Source: an uncultured Candidatus Bathyarchaeia archaeon (GTDB lineage: Archaea > Thermoproteota > Bathyarchaeia > TCS64 > B23). From it: a DNA stretch of 29,195 bases. The stretch lies in NCBI GenBank assembly GCA_964511325.1, contig CAZEET010000001.1, positions 1 to 29,195 of the forward strand, in the 5' to 3' direction. A program made the translations under genes and the position numbers. Of the stretch, positions 1,591-28,040 are shown in pieces; the stretch's first letter is position 1, and every line of letters begins with the position of its first letter. The notes beneath the pieces were generated by a model. That model was not told the origin of the DNA, made no database searches, and saw nothing but the letters and a program-made list of their open reading frames with translations.

Positions 1591-3672
1591 TTGAAGGCTG
1601 ATCGGGCTTTGGGTAGGATACTCATCATATGTGAGAAGCCTAGGGCCGCCCAGAGGATCGCCGAGGCCCTCGACGAGGGGGGTAAACCCCTGAAGAGGCG
1701 TATGATGGGAGTCACCTACTATCTGGCGAGGAGAGAAGGCGATGAGCTCGTCATAGTCTCAGCTCTCGGACACCTCTATACCGTAGCCCAGAGGGAGGGG
1801 CGATGGACCTACCCAATCTTCGACTTCACTTGGGTTCCCGTCCATGAGGCTGACCGTAGGGCGGGGAAGAGGAGGAGCTTCATAGAGACCATTAAGCGAC
1901 TCTCCAGGGATGCGGAGGGCTATGTTAGCGCCTGCGATTATGACATCGAGGGAAGCCTCATCGCATATAACATCCTCCGTTATACCTGTGGCGAGGAGAG
2001 CCTAAAGACAGCAAGGAGAATGCGTTTTTCAGCCTTAACGAGGAGGGATATCCTCAGAGCCTGGGAGAACATGAGCAGAACACTTGACTTCCCTCTCATA
2101 GAGGCTGGGAGGGCTAGACATGAGGTGGATTGGCTCTTCGGCATAAACCTAAGTAGAGCTCTAACGCTCTCGGTGAAGAGAGCCTCAGGATTCTACAAGA
2201 CGCTGAGCATAGGCCGAGTCCAGGGGCCGACCCTAAGCTTCGTCAGGGATAGAGAGGTCGAGGTTCGAACCTTCGTCCCAAAGCCCTACTGGGTGATAGA
2301 GGCTGAGGCTGAGATCGAGGGTAGACGCCTGAAGATCGAGTATGCCAAGAGCCGCATCGAGAAAGAGGCCGAGGCTCTAGAGATCGAATGGCGATGTAAA
2401 GATAGGATGGGCATCCTGAAGGCCGTTTCAAGGAGCAGGTATCGAATTCCGCCTCCAACGCTCTTCAACCTTGGAGATCTCCAACGTGAGGCGTATAAGG
2501 TCTTCAGGTACAGCCCCTCTAAGACGCTTAGGCTAGCTGAGAGCCTATACCTAGACGCCTACATCAGCTATCCAAGGACTTCGAGTCAGAAGCTACCGCC
2601 AACGATAGATGTGAAGGAGATACTCAGCGGATTGAGGGGGACAAAGTATAGTCCATTAGTCGAGGAGCTCCTCCTAAAGAGAATCCTGAGGCCTAGGGAA
2701 GGGAAGATGGATGATCCAGCTCATCCAGCTATCCACCCCACAGGAGTTGCTCCAAAGGGCCTTAGAGGAGCGGAGGCTAGGGTCTATGATCTCATCTGCC
2801 GACGTTTCATGGCCTCACTCGGCGATGAAGCTGTGAGGGAGAGGGTGAGAGCCGAGATCGATGTGGAGAGCCATCGCTTCCGCCTGAAGGGGGGGAGAGT
2901 CATCGAGGCTGGGTGGATGAGATTCTATCAGCCCTACATAAGGGAGAGGGAGGTGGAGCTTCCACATCTAGAGGAGGGAATGCCCATTAGGCTGTTGAAG
3001 GTGAGGGCCGTTAAGAGATTCACTAAGCCTCCCAGCAGGTATAATCAGAGCTCCCTTCTTAAGAGGATGGAGGAGGCTGAGATCGGAACTAAGGCGACGA
3101 GGGCTGAAATTCTTGACACCTTATATAGGAGGGGCTACGTCGAGGGCGATCCCATGAGGATCACAGACCTCGGCTTCGCCGTCGTCGAGACCTTAAGTCG
3201 CTATTGCCCGGAGATACTCTCAGTTGAGATGACGAGGAGCCTAGAGCGAAAACTTGAAGCCATCCAGCTCGGCAAGGTCGAGGCCGACGAGGTGGTGGAG
3301 GAGGCCGTTAAGGCCTTAAAGCCCATCTTGAGGCGGTTTAGAGAGCATGAAATGGAGATAGGTCTGGAGATCGACAGGGCGATTAGAGGTGACATCATCA
3401 GGGCTAACACCCTTGGAAGCTGCCCCCGATGCGGAAGGGAGCTCCGAATCTTCAGGGGGCGTGAATCTGGTAAGCGCTTCGCGGGATGCGTCGGCTATTT
3501 CGACGGCAGCTGCGCCGTCACCTATCCTCTTCCCCAGAGGGGGCGCATTGAGGCCACCGGTAAGCAATGCGAGGTTTGTGGAGCTCCGATTATAAGGGTT
3601 ATAAGGCGAGGCCGTAGGCCCTGGGAGCTCTGCATAAACCCAAGCTGTCCATCGAAGGGGGTGAGGCGTTGA
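1591..3672 (+). CDS. topA: DNA topoisomerase I (type IA) with C-terminal zinc ribbons
   Basis: TOPRIM motifs ICEKP, GHL and ACDYDIEG. Also SIGRVQGP, active-site YISYPRT, AHPAIHP and GTKATRA. Two C-terminal Cys4 ribbons (CPRCG..C..C and CEVCG..C.NPSC). Start may be TTG 1609. Confidence 0.97.
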   Translation: MKADRALGRILIICEKPRAAQRIAEALDEGGKPLKRRMMGVTYYLARREGDELVIVSALGHLYTVAQREGRWTYPIFDFTWVPVHEADRRAGKRRSFIETIKRLSRDAEGYVSACDYDIEGSLIAYNILRYTCGEESLKTARRMRFSALTRRDILRAWENMSRTLDFPLIEAGRARHEVDWLFGINLSRALTLSVKRASGFYKTLSIGRVQGPTLSFVRDREVEVRTFVPKPYWVIEAEAEIEGRRLKIEYAKSRIEKEAEALEIEWRCKDRMGILKAVSRSRYRIPPPTLFNLGDLQREAYKVFRYSPSKTLRLAESLYLDAYISYPRTSSQKLPPTIDVKEILSGLRGTKYSPLVEELLLKRILRPREGKMDDPAHPAIHPTGVAPKGLRGAEARVYDLICRRFMASLGDEAVRERVRAEIDVESHRFRLKGGRVIEAGWMRFYQPYIREREVELPHLEEGMPIRLLKVRAVKRFTKPPSRYNQSSLLKRMEEAEIGTKATRAEILDTLYRRGYVEGDPMRITDLGFAVVETLSRYCPEILSVEMTRSLERKLEAIQLGKVEADEVVEEAVKALKPILRRFREHEMEIGLEIDRAIRGDIIRANTLGSCPRCGRELRIFRGRESGKRFAGCVGYFDGSCAVTYPLPQRGRIEATGKQCEVCGAPIIRVIRRGRRPWELCINPSCPSKGVRR

Positions 3673-6372: not shown

Positions 6373-7575
6373 TTAAATGATCTCAAGCTCTTTTCCGATC
6401 TCCTCCAGAGCCTCGATAACTCTGTCTAGATCCTCCTGCGTGAGTTGCGCATGCATCTGTATCCTTATCCGAGCCTGGTCTCTAGCTACCATGGGGTAGA
6501 CGATGGGCGTTACATATATGCCTCTCTCATAGAGCTTCTCGCTCAGCTTCTTCGCCTTACTGCTCTCTCCGACGATAATTGGTATTATTGGCGTCTGAGA
6601 CTTGCCGGTGTTGAAGCCTAGATCCTGCACGGCCTTCCTGAAGTAGTTCGTGTTTTTCCATAGGTTCCTCACATGCCATGGCTCAGTTTCCAATACATCG
6701 ATGGCGGCGATGGTGGCTGCGACCACCGGCGGCGGAAGCGATGAGCTGAGAAGCCAGGTTCGACTCTTATTCCAGGCAAACTTGATGAGGTCTTCGGAGC
6801 CGCAGATATGTCCTCCCACTGTTCCATAGGCCTTGCTGAAGGTCCCCATATCGACGTGAACCTGATCATGGTTGAGGTGGAAGTGGGAGACTATGCCTCT
6901 GCCATCTTCGCCTAGAACTCCCTCTCCATGGGCGTCGTCGACGTAGACCATGGCACCATGCTCCTCAGCTAACTTAACGATCTCATCGAGGGGGGCGATG
7001 TCGCCGTCCATTGAGAAGACTCCATCCGTGATGATGAGTATCCTCCTGTAAGGCGGCTTATGTCTCTCAGCCTCATCGAGAACCTGGGCGAGATGCTCCA
7101 TATCCGTATGCCTATAGATGACTCTATCAGCCCTGCTCAGCCGGCAGCCGTCGATGATGCTTCCATGGTTAAGCTCCTCGCTGACGATTAGGTCTCCCTT
7201 ATCGACGAGCTGCGGTATCAATCCGGAGTTCACCATGAAGCCGGTGGGGTAGGTGAGCGCGGCCTCAGCCCTCTTCCACCTTGCCAATCGGCGCTCCAGC
7301 TCCATGTGGAGGCTCATCGTGCCGGAGATGGCCCTCACCGCTCCGGAGCCTACGCCATACTCCTTCGCGGCCTCTATGGCGGCCTCTATGAGCTTTGGAT
7401 GGGTTGCGAGACCCAGGTAGTTGTTGGAGCAGAGCAGTAGAACCTCCTTCCCCTCGACCACCGTTATAGGCTTACTCGGCCCCTCAACGGTCTTAAGCTT
7501 CCAGTCTAAGTCCTGCTCCGCTAGGGCGAGGTACTCCTCCCTTAGAAACTTCGTGGGATGCCTCTTGACGCTCAT
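6373..7575 (-). CDS. kbl: Glycine C-acetyltransferase (2-amino-3-ketobutyrate CoA ligase), AONS family
   Basis: CSNNYLGL, NHGSIIDG, DGVFSMDG, DDAHGEG and PLP-lysine GTFSKAYG. Divergent partner is a threonine dehydrogenase. Confidence 0.9.
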   Translation of the reverse strand: MSVKRHPTKFLREEYLALAEQDLDWKLKTVEGPSKPITVVEGKEVLLLCSNNYLGLATHPKLIEAAIEAAKEYGVGSGAVRAISGTMSLHMELERRLARWKRAEAALTYPTGFMVNSGLIPQLVDKGDLIVSEELNHGSIIDGCRLSRADRVIYRHTDMEHLAQVLDEAERHKPPYRRILIITDGVFSMDGDIAPLDEIVKLAEEHGAMVYVDDAHGEGVLGEDGRGIVSHFHLNHDQVHVDMGTFSKAYGTVGGHICGSEDLIKFAWNKSRTWLLSSSLPPPVVAATIAAIDVLETEPWHVRNLWKNTNYFRKAVQDLGFNTGKSQTPIIPIIVGESSKAKKLSEKLYERGIYVTPIVYPMVARDQARIRIQMHAQLTQEDLDRVIEALEEIGKELEII

Positions 7576-7666
7576 CCAATCCTATTGTCGATTATGAGGA
7601 TTAACGGTTTTCGATGAAAGAATTATCAATTAAATTCACCTTTTCCCTCTTGGAGGAGCATATATT

Positions 7667-8638
7667 TTGATTAGGAGCATGAAGCGGATATTGGTGACGG
7701 GAGCTGCTGGTCAGATAGGCTCTGAGCTGACGCCGAAGCTTCGAGAGCTCTATGGCCGAGAGAATGTAGTCGCGTCGGATATAAAGAAGCCAGGGGAGGA
7801 GCTCCTATCCTCAGGCCCCTTCGAATACCTCGACGTAACCGACGCCGAGAGCCTTAGGAGAGTGGTAGAGGAGTATGACATCGACTCCATCTTCCACCTG
7901 GCGGCGATCCTCTCAGCCAGGGGTGAACGGGATCCTCATCTCGCCTGGCACGTCAATATGAGGGGGCTCTACAACGTTTTGGAGGTGGCCCGTGAGATGG
8001 AGCTTCTTAGGGTGTTCTATCCCAGCTCCATAGCTGTCTTTAGCCCTGAAACCCCGAGGGATAGGACTCCTCAGCTCGCTGTCATGAGGCCTAGGACCAT
8101 ATATGGGGTGACGAAGCTAGCTGGAGAACTCCTCTGCGACTACTATTACGATCGCTTCGGCGTCGATGTCCGAGGGGTGAGGTATCCGGGGGTTATCAGC
8201 TATAAGACGTCCCCAGGAGGCGGGACGACAGATTATGCTGTGGAGATGTTCTATGCCGCCGTTAGAGGCGAAACCTACACCTGCTTCGTGAGGGAGGATA
8301 CGGTTCTCCCGATGATCTATATGCCCGACTGTATCAAGGCGGCGATCCAGCTTATGGAGGCTGACGCTGAGAGGCTGACGAGGCATGCGGATTATAATCT
8401 AGCCTCGATGAGCTTCTCAGCCGGTGAGCTGGCTGAGGAGATTAGAAAGCATATACCAGATTTCAAGGTGGTATACAAGCCGGATTATAGGCAGAAGATC
8501 GCCGATACATGGCCGAGGTCTATCGACGACTCAGCAGCCAGACGAGATTGGAGCTGGAAACCCAGCTACGGATTGGCTGAAATGACGAGGGATATGATCG
8601 AGAATCTGAGAAAGAGGTTGGAGGAGGGGCTTCTCTAA
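7667..8638 (+). CDS. tdh: L-threonine 3-dehydrogenase, extended-SDR (GalE-like) type
   Basis: GAAGQIG, HLAAILSA.GE, SSIAVF, YGVTK (YxxxK), RYPGVIS, PGGGTTDYAVEMF, LPMIYMPD and DTWPRSIDD, all characteristic of SDR-type TDH. Alternative start ATG 7679. Confidence 0.87.
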   Translation: MIRSMKRILVTGAAGQIGSELTPKLRELYGRENVVASDIKKPGEELLSSGPFEYLDVTDAESLRRVVEEYDIDSIFHLAAILSARGERDPHLAWHVNMRGLYNVLEVAREMELLRVFYPSSIAVFSPETPRDRTPQLAVMRPRTIYGVTKLAGELLCDYYYDRFGVDVRGVRYPGVISYKTSPGGGTTDYAVEMFYAAVRGETYTCFVREDTVLPMIYMPDCIKAAIQLMEADAERLTRHADYNLASMSFSAGELAEEIRKHIPDFKVVYKPDYRQKIADTWPRSIDDSAARRDWSWKPSYGLAEMTRDMIENLRKRLEEGLL

Positions 8639-12819: not shown

Positions 12820-14340
12820 ATGAACTTCATCAAGGAGACGAAGAGCCTCTGCCCTGAATGCCTGAAGGTGCTGTCAGCCACCATCTATGAAGAGGGGGGG
12901 AAGGTCTACATAAGGAAGACATGCCCAGAACACGGCGAGTGGACGGACCTCTATTGGGGAGACTACGAGCAGTATATGAGGGTTTTAAAGTATGAGCATC
13001 TCGGCAGGAAGCTGGACAATCCAAGAACCGAGACGAAGCTCGGCTGCCCCTACGACTGCGGCCTCTGCCCAGAGCACAACTCCCATACGGTTCTAGGCAT
13101 CATCGACGTCACAAACCGATGTAACCTCAGATGCCCCATCTGCTTCGCCCACGCTGGGGCGGCTGGATATCTCTACGAGCCGAGTTATGAGGAGATAGAG
13201 GATATGCTCAGAAGTCTTCGGGAGAACCGCCCGGTTCCCACTCCGGCCCTCCAATTCAGCGGCGGCGAACCAACGGTGAGGGAGGATCTCCCCGATCTAG
13301 TGAGACTTGCTAAGAGACTTGGCTTTAACCATGTTGAGGTAAACACGAATGGGATACTACTAGCTGAGAGCGTCGACTACTGCAAGGAGCTCCTCGATGC
13401 CGGCGTTGATACCTTCTACCTCCAATTTGACGGCGTCTCCCCGAAGCCCTATCTTGCGGCTAGGGGCTTCAATCTCTTTGAGATCAAGGTTAAGGCCCTT
13501 CAGAATCTGAGGGAGGCGGGATGCAGGAGCGTCGTCCTCGTGCCGACGCTAGTCGGAGGGGTAAATGACCAAGAGATCGGCGACATAATCCACTTCGCCA
13601 TAGAGAACAGGGACATTGTCCGATGTGTAAACTTCCAGCCGGTTTCCATCACCGGAAGGATCAATCGCAGAGAGAGGGAGAAAATGAGGATAACCATCCC
13701 AGATTTGATGAGGTTAGCTGAGGAGCAGACGGAGGGCCTCATCAAGCGGGAAGATTGGTATCCCGTGCCGACAGTCGTTCCCTTCTCTAGGTTCGTAGGA
13801 AAGCTGAAGGATCGCCATTACGTCGACTTCAGCGCCCATCCCCACTGCGGGATGGCCACCTACCTCGTCGCCGGAGGGGATAAAGTTGAGCCGATCACCC
13901 GCCATCTGAACGTCGACGGTTTCCTAAAGGCCTTAGAGACGGCCTCAAGACTGGTGGATGAGGGACATAGCACGAGGGCGAAGATGACTATAGCCGCCGC
14001 GGCCATAAGGAATATCAGCTTCGGAATGCTCAGGAGATTTCTCCTCCCCATCATCTGGAAGGGAGACTACAGGAGCCTCGGAGACCTCCATCATAGACTC
14101 ATAATGATTGGAGCGATGCACTTCATGGATCCCTATAACTTCGACCTAGAACGCGTGAACCGCTGCGTCATCCACTATGCCGTCCCAGATGGGCGCATCA
14201 TACCCTTCTGCACCATGAATACGCTGCATAGGAAGGCCGTTGAGAAGAAGTTCGCTCAACCTCTCGACGAATCGAGGATCACGCCCCTATACGATGTGGA
14301 GTCACTGAGAAAGAAAATATTGAGGGAGATGAAGGCCTAA
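12820..14340 (+). CDS. tes: Tetraether lipid synthase Tes / GDGT-macrocyclic archaeol synthase (MJ0619-like radical SAM)
   Basis: CPEC..CPEH N-terminal metal site, [11 protein letters not shown] auxiliary cluster, radical-SAM [28 protein letters not shown], and [26 protein letters not shown]. Confidence 0.92.
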
Positions 14341-16019
14341 AGCATCACCGCCCCCCTATTGGCGGAGGAGACGAGGCGAGAGTATCTAGCTAAATAACCC
14401 CTCTTAACTCGAGCCTCGGGGGGAGTCCAACGTCGACGACGCCTCTCAAGTTCCTCCTCTGAGACCTCTAGATCAAGCCTTCGCTTCTCCACATCCAGCA
14501 CTATTCGATCTCCATCCTCCACCAGGGCGATAGGCCCTCCCTCAGCGGCCTCGGGTGATATATGCCCGATGCAAGGCCCCCTCGTCGCCCCCGAGAAGCG
14601 CCCATCCGTGGCGAGAGCCACAGACCTATCAAGGCCAGAACCCACCAGCGCTGCGGTGGCCATCAACATCTCCCTCATCCCAGGCCCACCCTTCGGCCCC
14701 TCGTAACGGATGATGATGAAGTCTCCCTCCTCAATGCTACCCTCCTTAATCCCCTTAACAGCCTCCTCCTCACGGTTAAAGACCCTCGCCGAGCCCTCAA
14801 ACCTCCACATCTCCCTGGGGAGAGCAGCGATCTTTATGACGCAGCCATCGGGAGCGAGGCTGCCGTGGAGGACGGCGATTCCTCCCTCCCTATGCACGGG
14901 GTCATCCCTCGGCCTTATCACCTCCCTATTCCACACCCTCGCCCGAGTCGTGATCTCGGAGACTCGCATACCTGAGACGGTCTGGCAGCTTCCGTCGATG
15001 AGGTCCCCTAGCTCCCTCATCACAGCGGGGATTCCACCGGCTAGGTGGAGATCCTTAATCTTATAGGGTCCCGCTGGTGCCATGTTGCAGAGATGCGGAG
15101 TCCTACGGCTTATCTCATCGAAGATATCCAAGCCTAGGTCTACGCCTAGCTCATGCGCTATAGCCGGTAGATGGAGCACCGTGTTCGTCGAGCCTCCCAG
15201 GGCCATATCTACAGCTATGGCGTTTCTAAAGGCCTCCTCCGTCATGATGTCGCTGGGCTTCACATCCTCCCTTAAGAGCTCCATGATCTGTCTTCCAGTC
15301 TCGACAGCAAGCCTGAAGCGCTCCGAGCTCATCGCTGGGGCCGTCGCCATATAGGGAAGGGCCATTCCCATGGCCTCTATCAGGCACTGCATCGAGTTGG
15401 CCGTGAACATACCTCCACAGGCCCCGGGGCCGCCGCAACAGATGTCCTCCAGATATTTAAACTCCTCCATGGTTATCTCGCCGCTTCTAATCAGACTCTC
15501 AGCCTCCAGGAGATTCTGAATCGTGATGGAGCATCCCTCAAATCTCCCCCACCTCGGGTATCCCGGCTCCATGGGGCCTCCCAGGCAGAAGATGGTGGGG
15601 ATGTCAAGTCTAGCGGCGGCCATCATCATCCCGGGGTCTATCTTATCGCAGGTGGTGAGACAGATCATGGCGTCGAAGCCATGAGCCTCGATCATCACCT
15701 CAATCGAGTCGGCGATGAGCTCCCTGCTGGGCAGGGACATCCTCATTCCCTCATGCCCCATGGCTATACCATCACAGACGGCGATGGTGTTAAACTCCAG
15801 CGGCATCCCACCGGCCTCTAAGACCCCCCTCTTAACTATCTCCGCTAAGAGGTTGAGGTGGAAGTGACCTGGGACAATCTCATTCCAAGAGTTAACTATG
15901 GCGATGAGAGGTCTCTTCAGCTCCTCGTCGGTGAGGCCGACGCCCTTTAACAGCGATCTATGGATGCTCCTCCCGGGGCCGTCTAGGACCCTGCTGCTCC
16001 TCCATCTGGGGCCACTCAT
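14337..16019 (-). CDS. ilvD: Dihydroxy-acid dehydratase
   Basis: [55 protein letters not shown] and TDGRFSG. Confidence 0.96.
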
Positions 16020-19102: not shown

Positions 19103-19187
19103 GCTTTCAAACCACCATTGGGAGAGGGGGTAAAAAGGGTGTCGACTCCCAACACTTAAACCCTACTGGCAGTTATCTCATACGTCG

Positions 19188-20600
19188 ATGGAGACCTCTT
19201 ACCGGTTGAGGTGCTCCAGATGCGGAGCTGAGGCTGAGCTCACACCTTGGAATAGATGTCTGCGATGTGGAGGCCTACTGGAATACGCCTTCGATCCCGA
19301 CTATCTTAAAGAGGTGAAACTTAAGGGGCCTATCACCTTCTGGAGGTATAGACCCTTACTCCCGAGGGTTGATAGGGCCATAAGCCTCGGTGAGGGTGGG
19401 ACGCCGCTCCATAGGGCTGAGAGACTCGGTGAGGCCCTGGGGCTGAAGAATCTAATGCTTAAGGATGAGACTCGAAACCCGACAAATTCCTTTAAGGATA
19501 GGCCTGGAGCCCTCCTCGTCTCCGACGCCTATAGCAGGGGCTTCGACGCCATCATATGTGCAACAAATGGAAACCAGGGGGCCTCATTGGCCGCCTACTC
19601 AGCTAAGGTAGACATCGAATGTCATCTCCTCATCCCCAGAGATGTGGATATGGGTAAGCTGGCGCAGATGATCGCCTATGACGCCTACATAGAGGAACAG
19701 TGCAGTAGCATTGAGGAGGCGATTAGGCTGTCGGTGGAGATAGTGGAGAGACATGGATGGTACCAGGCGACCGCCGAGCTGAATCCCCTGACAATAGAGG
19801 CGCTGAAGACCATCTCCTATGAGCTTCAGGAGCAGGAAGCCGAGGCCGATGTGGTTGTAGCTGCGATGGGAAGCGGTGCCACCATCCATTCCCTCTGGAA
19901 GGGCTATGGAGAGATGAGGGCGATGGATTGGGTGGAGGATCCCCCTAGGTTAATCGGGGTTCAAGCTGAGGGCTGTCCACCCATCGCTAAAGCCTTCAGG
20001 CTAGGCCTTGAGAAGCCGATGGAGTTGGAGGAGGCTTTCACGGGCGCCACACCCATAAGGGTTGCCTCGCCAATCTATGGTGAACTCGCCCTCAAGGCGA
20101 TCAGAGAGTCAGGTGGCCTAGCCGTCTCCATCAGTGATGAGGAGATGCTTGAGATGGAGAAGACCATCGCCCGCTTGGAGGGCGTCTTCGCGGAGCCAGC
20201 GAGCGCAGCCACCGTGGCCAGCCTAAAGATCCTCCTCGACTCGGGGGATATCGACGGCAATGACAGGGTTGTCTGCCTCATTGCTAGCAGCGGCCTGAAG
20301 ACCGATGACATACTTAGGGGTCTGAGGATGAGGCGTCGACATCCCGGACTCACATCAAGGCTCACAACGAAGGAGAGAATACTGAGACTGATGGAGGAGG
20401 GGGAGACCTATGGATATGAGCTCTGGAAGAAGCTTGGCAGAGGTATGACCCTTGGGGCAGTCTATCAACACATCTCATATCTCGAGGAGAGGGGCCTCAT
20501 CGCCTCGAGGCTTAAGGGTAAGAGGCGGTATCTCAGGTTGACGGAGAAGGGGCGTAAAGTTCTCAGGGCTCTAGAGGAGCTCCGAGATCTCCTCAGCTGA
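19188..20600 (+). CDS. thrC: Threonine synthase-like PLP enzyme fused to C-terminal winged-helix (PadR/ArsR-like) domain
   Basis: N-terminal Zn ribbon, LGEGGTPL, NPTNSFKDR (PLP Lys) and EPASAA. C-terminal ~75 aa ERILRLM..GETYGYELWKKL...LGAVYQHISYLEERGLI...RRYLRLTEKG. Confidence 0.87.
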   Translation: METSYRLRCSRCGAEAELTPWNRCLRCGGLLEYAFDPDYLKEVKLKGPITFWRYRPLLPRVDRAISLGEGGTPLHRAERLGEALGLKNLMLKDETRNPTNSFKDRPGALLVSDAYSRGFDAIICATNGNQGASLAAYSAKVDIECHLLIPRDVDMGKLAQMIAYDAYIEEQCSSIEEAIRLSVEIVERHGWYQATAELNPLTIEALKTISYELQEQEAEADVVVAAMGSGATIHSLWKGYGEMRAMDWVEDPPRLIGVQAEGCPPIAKAFRLGLEKPMELEEAFTGATPIRVASPIYGELALKAIRESGGLAVSISDEEMLEMEKTIARLEGVFAEPASAATVASLKILLDSGDIDGNDRVVCLIASSGLKTDDILRGLRMRRRHPGLTSRLTTKERILRLMEEGETYGYELWKKLGRGMTLGAVYQHISYLEERGLIASRLKGKRRYLRLTEKGRKVLRALEELRDLLS

Positions 20601-20636
20601 GAGCAGTAATATATGAGACAACCCTAGACCTCATGG

Positions 20637-26782: not shown

Positions 26783-28040
26783 GTGAATTTGTGGAAGAAA
26801 CTGGGATCAATGTCTCTTGAGGATATACGTCAATTCCTCGGGAATCGGAATATCGTCTCTATAATGGTCACGCAGACCCTAACCATGTTTATAGCATGGC
26901 TCTGGTGGCCGTATCGCAGTCTCTATATACTGGCGCTGGGGGCCAGCAAGGAGGTGCTTGGGGCTTTATTGATGATAGAGATGGTGGGAGGTATGATTTT
27001 CCAACTTCCAGGTGGAATTCTGGCGGATAGATGGGGTAGAAAAAGGGTGATGCTTCTCAGCGCCATCATCGGCCTTGGCTCACCCCTCATATATCTCTTC
27101 GCGATGAACTGGGTACACATAGCTCCCGCCCTCCTGTTAGCCTCCACAAGCGCTCTGAGTAGACCGGCTTACAACGCCTTAATCGCGGAGAGCCTTCCCC
27201 CCGAGAAACGGGGATCCGGTTTCGCAGCCATAAGCTTCGTACAGAAGATTCCTCAGATATTCACAGGCGTTATTGGGGGCTACATCATCGACCGCTATGG
27301 AGTTTTGAGCGGTGTGAGAATGATCCTTACAGCATCATTCTTCGCGTCTCTGACGGGCGTTTTGATTTATTGGAGGGGACTTGAAGAAACCTTGATTTCG
27401 CACACCTCGGGGAAGATTAAAAATAGAGGCTTCTCCCTCCGAGGCGTCAGCCAGATACCCCGAGACGTATTGTTATTGACGATCGTGGCGAGTCTCAGCG
27501 CCTTCGGCGTTAGAATGATCTTCGACTTCTCGGTGGTTTACGCAGTGGAGGTGATAGGATTATCCAAGATGGAGTATGGGCTGATCGGCACGATGGTGAG
27601 TTTCATAAACCTGTTTCTAACCCTACCTGGAGGAATTCTCGCGGAAGTTTGGTAAAAAGATCGTCGTGATCCTTTCACGGCTCTTATACTCCCTCTCGAT
27701 AATAGGTTTTCCTCTTTCATCGAGTTTCTGGCATCTAGCCGCCTTTAGGGTTGTGGGTAGCATCGGGATCGGGTTTGGAGGCACATTTATGCGGGTGAGG
27801 GGTGGCCCAGTGTGGGAGGCGATGGTGGCTGAGGCCTGTCCACGGGAGCAACGAGGCAGGTTGATGGGGCTGATGGGGACGATAATCAGCCTGATAAATG
27901 TCCCCGCCCCCTTCGTTGGAGGATATCTCTATGAAAATGTCTCCCCGGAGATGCCCTTCATCACCAGTTTCCTGATGAATACCCTTGGCACGGTGTTGAT
28001 CGCGGTCTTCATCAAGCAAAGGGGGAGAGAAAGATCGTAA
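26783..28040 (+). pseudogene. MFS transporter split by a frameshift (26783-27655 and continuing to 28040)
   Basis: First half has LPGGILADRWGRKR. The second-half equivalent reads LPGGILAE in one frame, then FGKKIVVILSR in the next frame, broken at 27644-27647. Confidence 0.75.

Follow-up and report, generated by a model that had tools for sequence, protein, structure and literature searches.

We analyzed a 29,195-nucleotide stretch of DNA (hereafter the window) from an uncultured Candidatus Bathyarchaeia archaeon, contig CAZEET010000001.1 of assembly GCA_964511325.1. One of its genes encodes a 470-residue protein in which a threonine synthase (ThrC) fold is fused in frame to a PadR-type winged helix-turn-helix domain (wHTH). 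Our analysis indicates that this protein is probably a transcription regulator that responds to vitamin B6, built on the ThrC fold and working like the bacterial PdxR, and not a threonine synthase. This is the best reading of a transporter gene that accompanies the fusion gene, of a link to the B6 synthesis gene pdxS, of the loss of the catalytic lysine from most of the family, and of a palindromic operator.

A ThrC fold fused to a PadR winged helix

The protein consists, in this order, of a zinc ribbon, a complete ThrC fold, a flexible linker and a PadR winged helix (Table 1). A preliminary description of this DNA had read the frame as a ThrC fold followed by a wHTH, which was confirmed by Pfam matches to PALP and to PadR (PF03551, residues 398-460, E 2.7e-8, 34.1 bits against a cut-off of 27). 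The zinc ribbon is also present in both unfused paralogues of the same genome. An AlphaFold2 (AF2) model made with 72 family sequences had a mean predicted local distance difference test (pLDDT) score of 92.9, falling below 50 only at residues 379-390 of the linker, and its C-terminal part runs helix-helix-helix-strand-strand-helix. The top Foldseek matches of the model were threonine synthases (PDB 6cgq, 2zsj, 2d1f and 1uim), with template modelling (TM) scores of 0.85-0.87 on the target, 0.87 for the best of them, 6cgq, and about 33% identity.

Lys103 aligns with the lysine of the solved ThrCs, which share the SFKDR motif. SFKDR, ATNGNQ and ASSGLK read exactly as previously described; at the positions of the last two, the solved chains have CASTGNTSAS and T(V/L)TGNGLK. 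Relative to threonine synthase, STGNT has thus become TNGNQ, GNAGN has become GSGAT, TGNGLK has become ASSGLK, and a wHTH has been added. The ThrC motif NSxNPxRxEGQK is lost and reads AELNPLTIEALK; in the alignment, NSVNP(V/Y)R(I/L)EGQKT of the solved ThrCs corresponds to AELNPLTIEALKT. In ThrC, STGNT and NSxNPxRxEGQK bind the substrate carboxylate and phosphate, and the Thr of TGxGLK contacts the pyridine nitrogen of the cofactor, pyridoxal 5'-phosphate (PLP). We assume that the conserved columns have the roles known from ThrC in binding the cofactor phosphate, O3' and N1 and the substrate phosphate.

The fusion is not peculiar to this assembly, for example through a lost stop codon, as had been considered: all 120 best homologues, named Bathyarchaeia by their sources, carry PF00291 and PF03551 in about 470 aa. 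Both PALP and PadR were also matched in 72 of 72 diverse fusion-form sequences, and many clusters among the 50%-identity representatives aligned over the whole length. Surveying the spread of the fusion thus revealed a large archaeal family, whose named members include Thermococcus chitonophagus, Aigarchaeota, Thermoprotei, Asgardarchaeia and Promethearchaeota. Within the genus of the window, pairwise ratios of nonsynonymous to synonymous substitution rates (dN/dS) were 0.06-0.11 for the whole gene, and by halves (four pairs each) 0.069-0.088 for residues 1-376 and 0.036-0.119 for residues 377-470. Such ratios indicate purifying selection on the gene within the genus, and the protein would therefore still work despite its moved target gene and an Ala at position 366, both described below.

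Most of this family has lost the Schiff-base lysine. Together with the query and its two paralogues, 142 of 150 representatives were aligned (eight rows with lengths outside 340-520 aa were dropped), giving 145 rows, 74 with the wHTH, 62 without it and 9 ambiguous. At column 103, all 62 unfused rows had Lys, compared with only 4 of the 74 fused rows; the latter otherwise had Leu (17), Ile (16), Arg (15), Val (7), Met (4), Thr (4), Phe (3) or other residues (4). Of the four fused Lys rows, one (P0219) is doubtful and falls among the unfused proteins. The columns of the cofactor pocket are conserved in the fused rows, namely Gly228 (71/74), Gly230 (74/74), Asn129 (67/74, with Asp in 7) and Thr366 (70/74), as are Gly369 (74/74), Lys371 (70/74), Asp104 and Arg105 (74/74 each). 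The Arg of NPxR is replaced by Leu, Phe, Ser or Thr. On the evidence of these residues, the fusion family appears to consist mostly of pseudoenzymes.

The window protein belongs to a subclade that has the lysine. Among the query and its 120 nearest relatives (n=121), residue 103 is Lys in 113 and Arg in 8, residue 130 is His in 101, Gln in 10 and Leu in 10, and residue 366 is Thr in 117 and Ala in 4, these four being the query's own group. Residues 103 and 130 co-vary: Lys occurs with His or Gln130 in 111 of 113 rows and Arg with Leu130 in 8 of 8; His or Gln accompanies Lys103, and Leu or Met accompanies Arg103. In a FastTree phylogeny of the ThrC-like columns, the fused rows formed a clade A of 22 rows (support 100; Arg in 15, Lys in 3, other residues in 4) and a clade B of 50 rows (support 98), in which residue 103 is always hydrophobic, Thr or Asn. 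An IQ-TREE phylogeny of 64 rows, rooted on clade B and the unfused rows, placed a 15-row Lys clade (support 99), spanning the window's families f1 and f52, within a group of Bathyarchaeia (support 97). This group's other 15 members comprise 13 rows with Arg, one with Ser (P0123) and a second Lys row, P0126, which also has Gln130; all deeper clade-A lineages have Arg, Phe or Tyr. Lys is encoded by AAG or AAA in 24 of 24 loci and Arg by AGA or AGG in 30 of 32, so that a single transition separates the two residues. Nesting in the tree and codons favour a lysine regained in the Lys clade. An alternative tree with all non-Lys rows together was not rejected by the approximately unbiased test (log-likelihood difference 18.4, p 0.199), and retention of the lysine is possible.

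Clade-A and clade-B fusion genes were also seen in the same genome (G252:C57:16126-17520 and G252:C66:28229-29698). The two clades are thus paralogues able to coexist, presumably with different operators.

The transporter gene, its operator and the link to pdxS

To define the gene context, we compared 71 loci, the window and 70 from relatives, and clustered their open reading frames (ORFs) by BLAST. A single neighbour family recurred widely, a membrane protein of 165-250 aa found at 49 of the 71 loci, which is the S-component of an energy-coupling factor (ECF) transporter (PF07155, E 3.5e-30). Its position varies with the type of locus. In R-type (Arg-bearing) loci of Bathyarchaeia the regulator gene is followed by the S-component gene and then by an AIR-synthase-like gene, and in clade B the S-component and regulator genes are divergent. 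In the K-type (Lys-bearing) loci of other genera of the window's order, the regulator gene diverges from an OB-fold gene and is followed by the S-component gene, with Rio2 directly after it in seven loci. These other genera have the S-component gene together with the operator at 15 of 19 loci, directly 3' of the regulator or at most two ORFs away; one of the four remaining loci ends at a contig edge.

The window and four relatives of its genus have a different arrangement, in which the regulator gene lies between the divergent OB-fold gene and Rio2, with a 36-bp gap to the latter and without the S-component gene. In all four sister genomes an S-component orthologue (about 50% identity, E about 1e-46) is located elsewhere, between another S-like gene and a class-III aminotransferase. 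At this place the sister genome G303 (L102) carries an S-component-like gene of 207 aa (826-1449), a PdxU2-like gene (1486-1974) and a class-III PLP-dependent aminotransferase (2012-3358), with an ornithine-carbamoyltransferase-like gene upstream.

Next, we compared three S-component versions to the PDB. Chain S of 4hzu was the sole match at E<=0.01 (E 3.8e-17, 5.2e-10 and 5e-17), one query gave an additional, non-significant match to 4acj (E 0.36), and the PDB matches of the three queries included none of the riboflavin, folate, thiamine or biotin S-components at E<=1. According to passages of its description, 4hzu is the ECF transporter HmpT/PdxU2, whose bound substrate was found by mass spectrometry to be pyridoxamine (PMC4860826). 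Passages of a 2023 survey list PdxU and PdxU2/HmpT, both of PF07155, among only three characterised prokaryotic B6 transporters; ThrC and PadR are unmentioned in these passages (PMC9997740).

The AIR-synthase-family gene that follows the S-component gene in most R-type loci (L024 4164-5189 and equivalents) scores 135 bits with HypE and 104 bits with ThiL, both below the cut-offs. It could encode a salvage kinase, or it could be a pointer to another vitamin.

A palindrome marks the S-component gene in both types of loci. Just upstream of its start, K-type loci have one or two copies of TATAGTT-NN-AACTATA, and R-type loci have an extended form, AGTATAGTT-NN-AACTATACT, upstream of the start. Thus, the Lys and Arg proteins share site and target. 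Searching five R-type genomes for the 18-nt form with up to two mismatches gave 7 sites, of which 6 lie at the junction between regulator and S-component genes, and a reversed-pattern control gave 0, 0, 1, 0 and 0. The 16-nt form with up to two mismatches was not enriched over the reversed-pattern control in five K-type genomes, and its matches were informative only with at most one mismatch. At this stringency it was present at the junction in four of them, and the fifth has a match with two mismatches there; two further matches at this level (L107 and L116) are inside genes and probably due to chance. In genome G315 a tandem pair of palindromes precedes a second S-component-like gene. Clade B has a different palindrome, CCTATATATAGG, which precedes its S-component genes. 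Another palindrome, CAAG-N6-CTTG, was rejected as the clade's operator; its two matches in the window are inside genes 6-8 kb away, and 6 of 100 shuffles were as good.

The fusion is also linked to the B6 synthesis gene pdxS, both by its distribution and by position. A search of 79 genomes of the window's order, 23 of which are of high quality, gave no PdxS (PF01680), and the controls were positive in 9 of 14 reference genomes. None of 9 clade-B genomes gave PdxS either, and 2 of 5 R-type genomes did. We then examined a sample of 301 genomes of the phylum, in which a fusion was counted when a wHTH-only profile matched at E<=1e-15 within a long open frame, with G235 added (2.1e-14, 502-aa frame). 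PdxS was present in 140 of the 301 genomes: it was found in 16 and not found in 75 of the 91 genomes with the fusion, and found in 124 and not found in 86 of the 210 genomes without it, counts that were made by hand, with a threshold chosen after the output had been seen, on related genomes and with no statistic attached. NF004170 at E<=1e-85, tried as a fusion detector, did not separate fused from unfused forms and was replaced by the wHTH-only profile. In genus g107 of family f26, PdxS was found in 4 of 6 sampled genomes and the fusion in none, and genera g45 and g69 show the reverse. In 6 of the 16 genomes with both genes (five of genus g35, and G270), the fusion gene and pdxS are divergent neighbours. 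We read the gap between them in three of these; L123 and L125 have CCTATATATAGG there, and L127 has the variant CCATATATGG.

A model of B6 sensing and its alternatives

Our model suggests that the ThrC-like domain forms a pocket for vitamin B6, most likely PLP, which in the Lys-bearing subclade could sit as a Schiff base on Lys103. The protein would probably dimerise through its ThrC-like domains, and two PadR winged helices on flexible linkers would bind TATAGTT-NN-AACTATA, overlapping the S-component promoter. B6 uptake would thereby follow the PLP level of the cell; the position of the site and analogy point to repression at high PLP. In the window's genus, the importer gene has shifted to a different locus, where the site persists in degenerate form. 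The ligand, the DNA binding and the sign of regulation are what we infer in this model; its observed basis is the domain architecture, the loss of the lysine across the family, the conserved partner gene, the operator, and the link to pdxS in distribution and position. The preliminary description had proposed a catalytically drifted sensor of O-phosphohomoserine or threonine that controls transcription. The sensor stands in outline, given a family mostly without the lysine, a conserved operator and a conserved target gene; the proposed ligand is unsupported, the residues aligned to the substrate-phosphate motif of ThrC being replaced.

Prediction of the homodimer gave a score of 0.83, and the best of three controls gave 0.00; among proteins with solved structures, 20 of 30 pairs and 1 of 23 single chains reached the mark for this score. 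The runs shared at least 57% of their contacts, with a partner pLDDT of no less than 87. Confident contacts are confined to residues 48-383, in the ThrC-like domain, and do not inform the placement of the winged helices. The result may reflect likeness to, or memory of, solved ThrC dimers.

Several observations weigh against a B6 regulator of this kind. No S-component orthologue was found by tblastn with 50 query proteins in the window's own assembly, which is 62.8% complete (0.96 Mb, 122 contigs), and two weak PF07155-like genes there (28.5 and 24.8 bits) are not S-component orthologues. Contig C120 of this genome ends inside the matching aminotransferase (92.6% identity, residues 232-448), and most likely the S-component gene is therefore just unassembled. 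The operator had a single match in the window, with three mismatches and inside a gene (27 of 100 shuffles were as good), and two matches with two mismatches in the 62.8%-complete genome, compared with 0-3 in shuffles. The relocated S-component gene of the window's genus is preceded by a gap of sequence ATATATTAGACAAAACTATAATAT, with one half-site intact and the other degenerate, and the strict operator was not found upstream of pdxS in clade A, where pdxS occurs in 2 of the 5 genomes tested. PF07155 also includes riboflavin S-components, the ThiL/HypE-like gene 3' of the S-component in R-type loci could indicate a different vitamin, and the genus has replaced the conserved Thr366 by Ala. The lysine conserved in 113 of 121 near relatives, co-varying with His or Gln130, would fit a working enzyme too, and the phyletic counts carry the limits given with them.

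Among the alternatives, we first considered a trigger enzyme: in the Lys-bearing subclade the ThrC-like domain would act as a functional PLP enzyme on a compound that is not O-phosphohomoserine, and would regulate transcription as well, as RbkR does for riboflavin. The Lys103 conserved in near relatives and in all 24 K-type loci, its pairing with residue 130 (Leu in all eight Arg rows), the retained glycine loop and Asn129, the low dN/dS and an archaeal precedent in RbkR, described in the abstract of PMC5397151 as an active enzyme-regulator fusion for a vitamin, are consistent with this. Against it, operator and target are shared by the Arg-bearing sisters (about 50% identity), and regulation can therefore do without the lysine; in addition, the substrate motifs of ThrC are replaced, Thr366 is Ala in the window's genus, and the gene context yields no candidate substrate. 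We consider a trigger enzyme unlikely, and the proposal, also made in the preliminary description, now extends to the Lys-bearing subclade only. A speculative and rather doubtful history goes with it, in which one AGR-to-AAR substitution gave a pseudoenzyme regulator of the window's order its catalytic lysine back, accompanied by a polar residue 130, leading to covalent capture of PLP and perhaps to restored catalysis. If so, a dead enzyme turned sensor would once more be a trigger enzyme, a counterpart of RbkR with vitamin B6 in place of riboflavin.

A second alternative retains the regulator and changes its ligand to another vitamin, or to an amino acid such as threonine or O-phosphohomoserine, imported by the neighbouring S-component. 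PF07155 is named for riboflavin S-components, R-type loci have the ThiL/HypE-like gene, and the ancestry of the domain is that of ThrC. However, PdxU2/HmpT is the only significant solved match of the S-component, other lineages have pdxS as a divergent neighbour together with the family palindrome, none of the 79 genomes searched in the window's order gave PdxS, the Arg aligned to the phosphate-binding Arg of ThrC is lost, and riboflavin in archaea is already under RbkR. Together these make a different ligand quite improbable.

Finally, current annotation makes the protein an ordinary threonine synthase whose C-terminal domain is accessory. The protein does pass TIGR00260, most of its length is spanned by the NF004170 model, and sources name its relatives threonine synthase. 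This reading is nevertheless very hard to reconcile with a canonical thrC beside a GHMP kinase in the same genome, the loss of the catalytic lysine in most family members, the changed substrate motifs and an NF004170 score under the cut-off. That genome has three ThrC-family genes. The second, canonical thrC whose presence the preliminary description had left to be checked is on contig C46, with all the canonical motifs (FKDRG, CASTGNTSAS, NSINPWRLEGQK and TGNLLKD), and abuts the GHMP kinase gene, probably thrB; the window protein has no thrB neighbour. The C46 paralogue scores 284 bits, against 174 for the window protein. The third paralogue, on contig C31 (L002 1330-2505, 391 aa), has FKARG, PSAGNAAAA and NTGTGLKY, scores above the TIGR00260 cut-off and adjoins a 300-aa GHMP-kinase-like gene (L002 2576-3478).

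The public annotation as threonine synthase can be traced to two models. The window protein passes TIGR00260 (172.8 bits against a cut-off of 167.1), and the curated NCBIfam model NF004170 (PRK05638, 'threonine synthase', 442 positions) spans residues 7-462 including the wHTH, although its score of 360 bits is below the cut-off of 421. Because of this coverage, NF004170 must have been built from fusion proteins of this family; its name implies an enzyme, which the family-wide loss of the lysine contradicts. The best NF004170 matches (about 700 bits; G198:C1:195565-196878 and G046:C1:595605-596918) each have one in-frame TGA, and several fusion genes of genus g35 have one TAA or TAG inside the match. 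These may be broken genes, alignments running past a stop, or cases of recoding.

The preliminary description had named kbl/tdh and ilvD as plausible targets; the kbl/tdh-like pair (6373-8638) and ilvD (14337-16019) are 11-13 kb and 3-5 kb away and were conserved neighbours in 0 of 70 related loci, so we rejected both. The two genes of the pair, at 6373-7575 (-) and 7667-8638 (+), match only the general families Aminotran_1_2 and NAD-dependent epimerase/dehydratase. The gap upstream of the regulator (19103-19187) and the same gap in K-type loci contain two conserved TATA-like boxes about 20 nt apart: ATAAAAGA is oriented towards the OB-fold gene, and CTTAAAC is about 30 nt ahead of the regulator ATG. 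These boxes suggest that the divergent transcripts may be leaderless. Two neighbouring ORFs of 290 and 124 aa (26783-27655 and 27666-28040) both match MFS_1 and may be a single transporter gene split by a stop or a frameshift.

Table 1 Coordinates of the fusion gene, its motifs and its flanking gaps in the window.
Feature	Position	Strand	Basis or remark
Whole gene, ThrC fold (candidate sensor) fused to PadR wHTH, 470 aa	19188..20600	+	ATG start, TGA stop
N-terminal zinc ribbon CxxC...CxxC (Cys9, Cys12, Cys24, Cys27; residues 9-27)	19206..19274	+	Read from sequence
PALP (fold-type II PLP) domain, residues 65-365	19380..20282	+	Pfam PF00291 E 1.4e-67; ThrC structures E 1e-52; Foldseek TM 0.87
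Lys103 codon AAG, Schiff-base position	19494..19496	+	Within SFKDR, residues 101-105
ATNGNQ loop, residues 125-130 (canonical ThrC: ASTGNT)	19560..19577	+	Alignment to solved ThrC chains
NPLT, aligned to NPxR of ThrC motif NSxNPxRxEGQK, Arg lost	19782..19793	+	Alignment
GSGAT glycine loop, cofactor-phosphate loop of the fold	19869..19883	+	G228 71/74, G230 74/74 fusion rows
ASSGLK, residues 366-371; family consensus TSSGLK, Ala366 genus-specific	20283..20300	+	Alignment
Basic flexible linker, residues 377-393	20316..20366	+	AF2 pLDDT <50 at 379-390
PadR-type winged helix with C-terminal helix, residues 394-469	20367..20594	+	Signature YGYxLWK...VYQH
Divergent promoter gap shared with OB-fold gene	19103..19187	.	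Two TATA-like boxes conserved in relatives; family operator not found
Gap to Rio2 gene, 36 bp	20601..20636	.	S-component gene and operator absent here

Comparison with known regulators

Our literature searches, which did not extend to supplements, found no published description of the ThrC/PadR fusion family and no archaeal vitamin B6 regulator in print. The family would fill this gap with a testable operator, target and ligand. Its neighbouring S-component is a candidate archaeal B6 importer, and passages of PMC9997740 describe B6 transport as a poorly known part of B6 metabolism. Our results suggest that an entire order of Bathyarchaeia relies on B6 from outside the cell, and most likely B6 importers are controlled by a ThrC-fold DNA-binding switch in many archaea. 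They also point to systematic misannotation, as many proteins of the family are named threonine synthase. Within it, the window member stands out by Lys103, the co-varying residue 130, Ala366 and a displaced target gene, and the Lys, Arg and hydrophobic variants offer a natural series on how a PLP pocket senses without catalysing.

The closest parallel is PdxR of the bacterial MocR family, in which, according to passages of PMC5320631, a PLP-enzyme fold likewise serves as the sensor of a winged-helix regulator. These passages give pdxST, pdxK and the transporter gene pdxU as PdxR regulon members, the same kinds of targets as the S-component gene and pdxS here, and state that MocR is absent from Archaea. 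MocR proteins combine an N-terminal GntR wHTH with a fold-type I aminotransferase-like domain, whereas the window protein combines a zinc ribbon and a fold-type II ThrC-like domain with a C-terminal PadR domain. Since both domains differ, the window protein is not a MocR member, and the two families look like convergent solutions rather than homologues.

In archaea, the nearest comparison is RbkR, which likewise joins an enzyme domain to a wHTH in a vitamin regulator; the abstract of PMC5397151 describes a riboflavin kinase/wHTH protein that controls vitamin synthesis and uptake genes through palindromic operators varying between lineages. The enzyme domain of RbkR is active and of an unrelated fold, whereas the ThrC/PadR family is mostly without its catalytic lysine.

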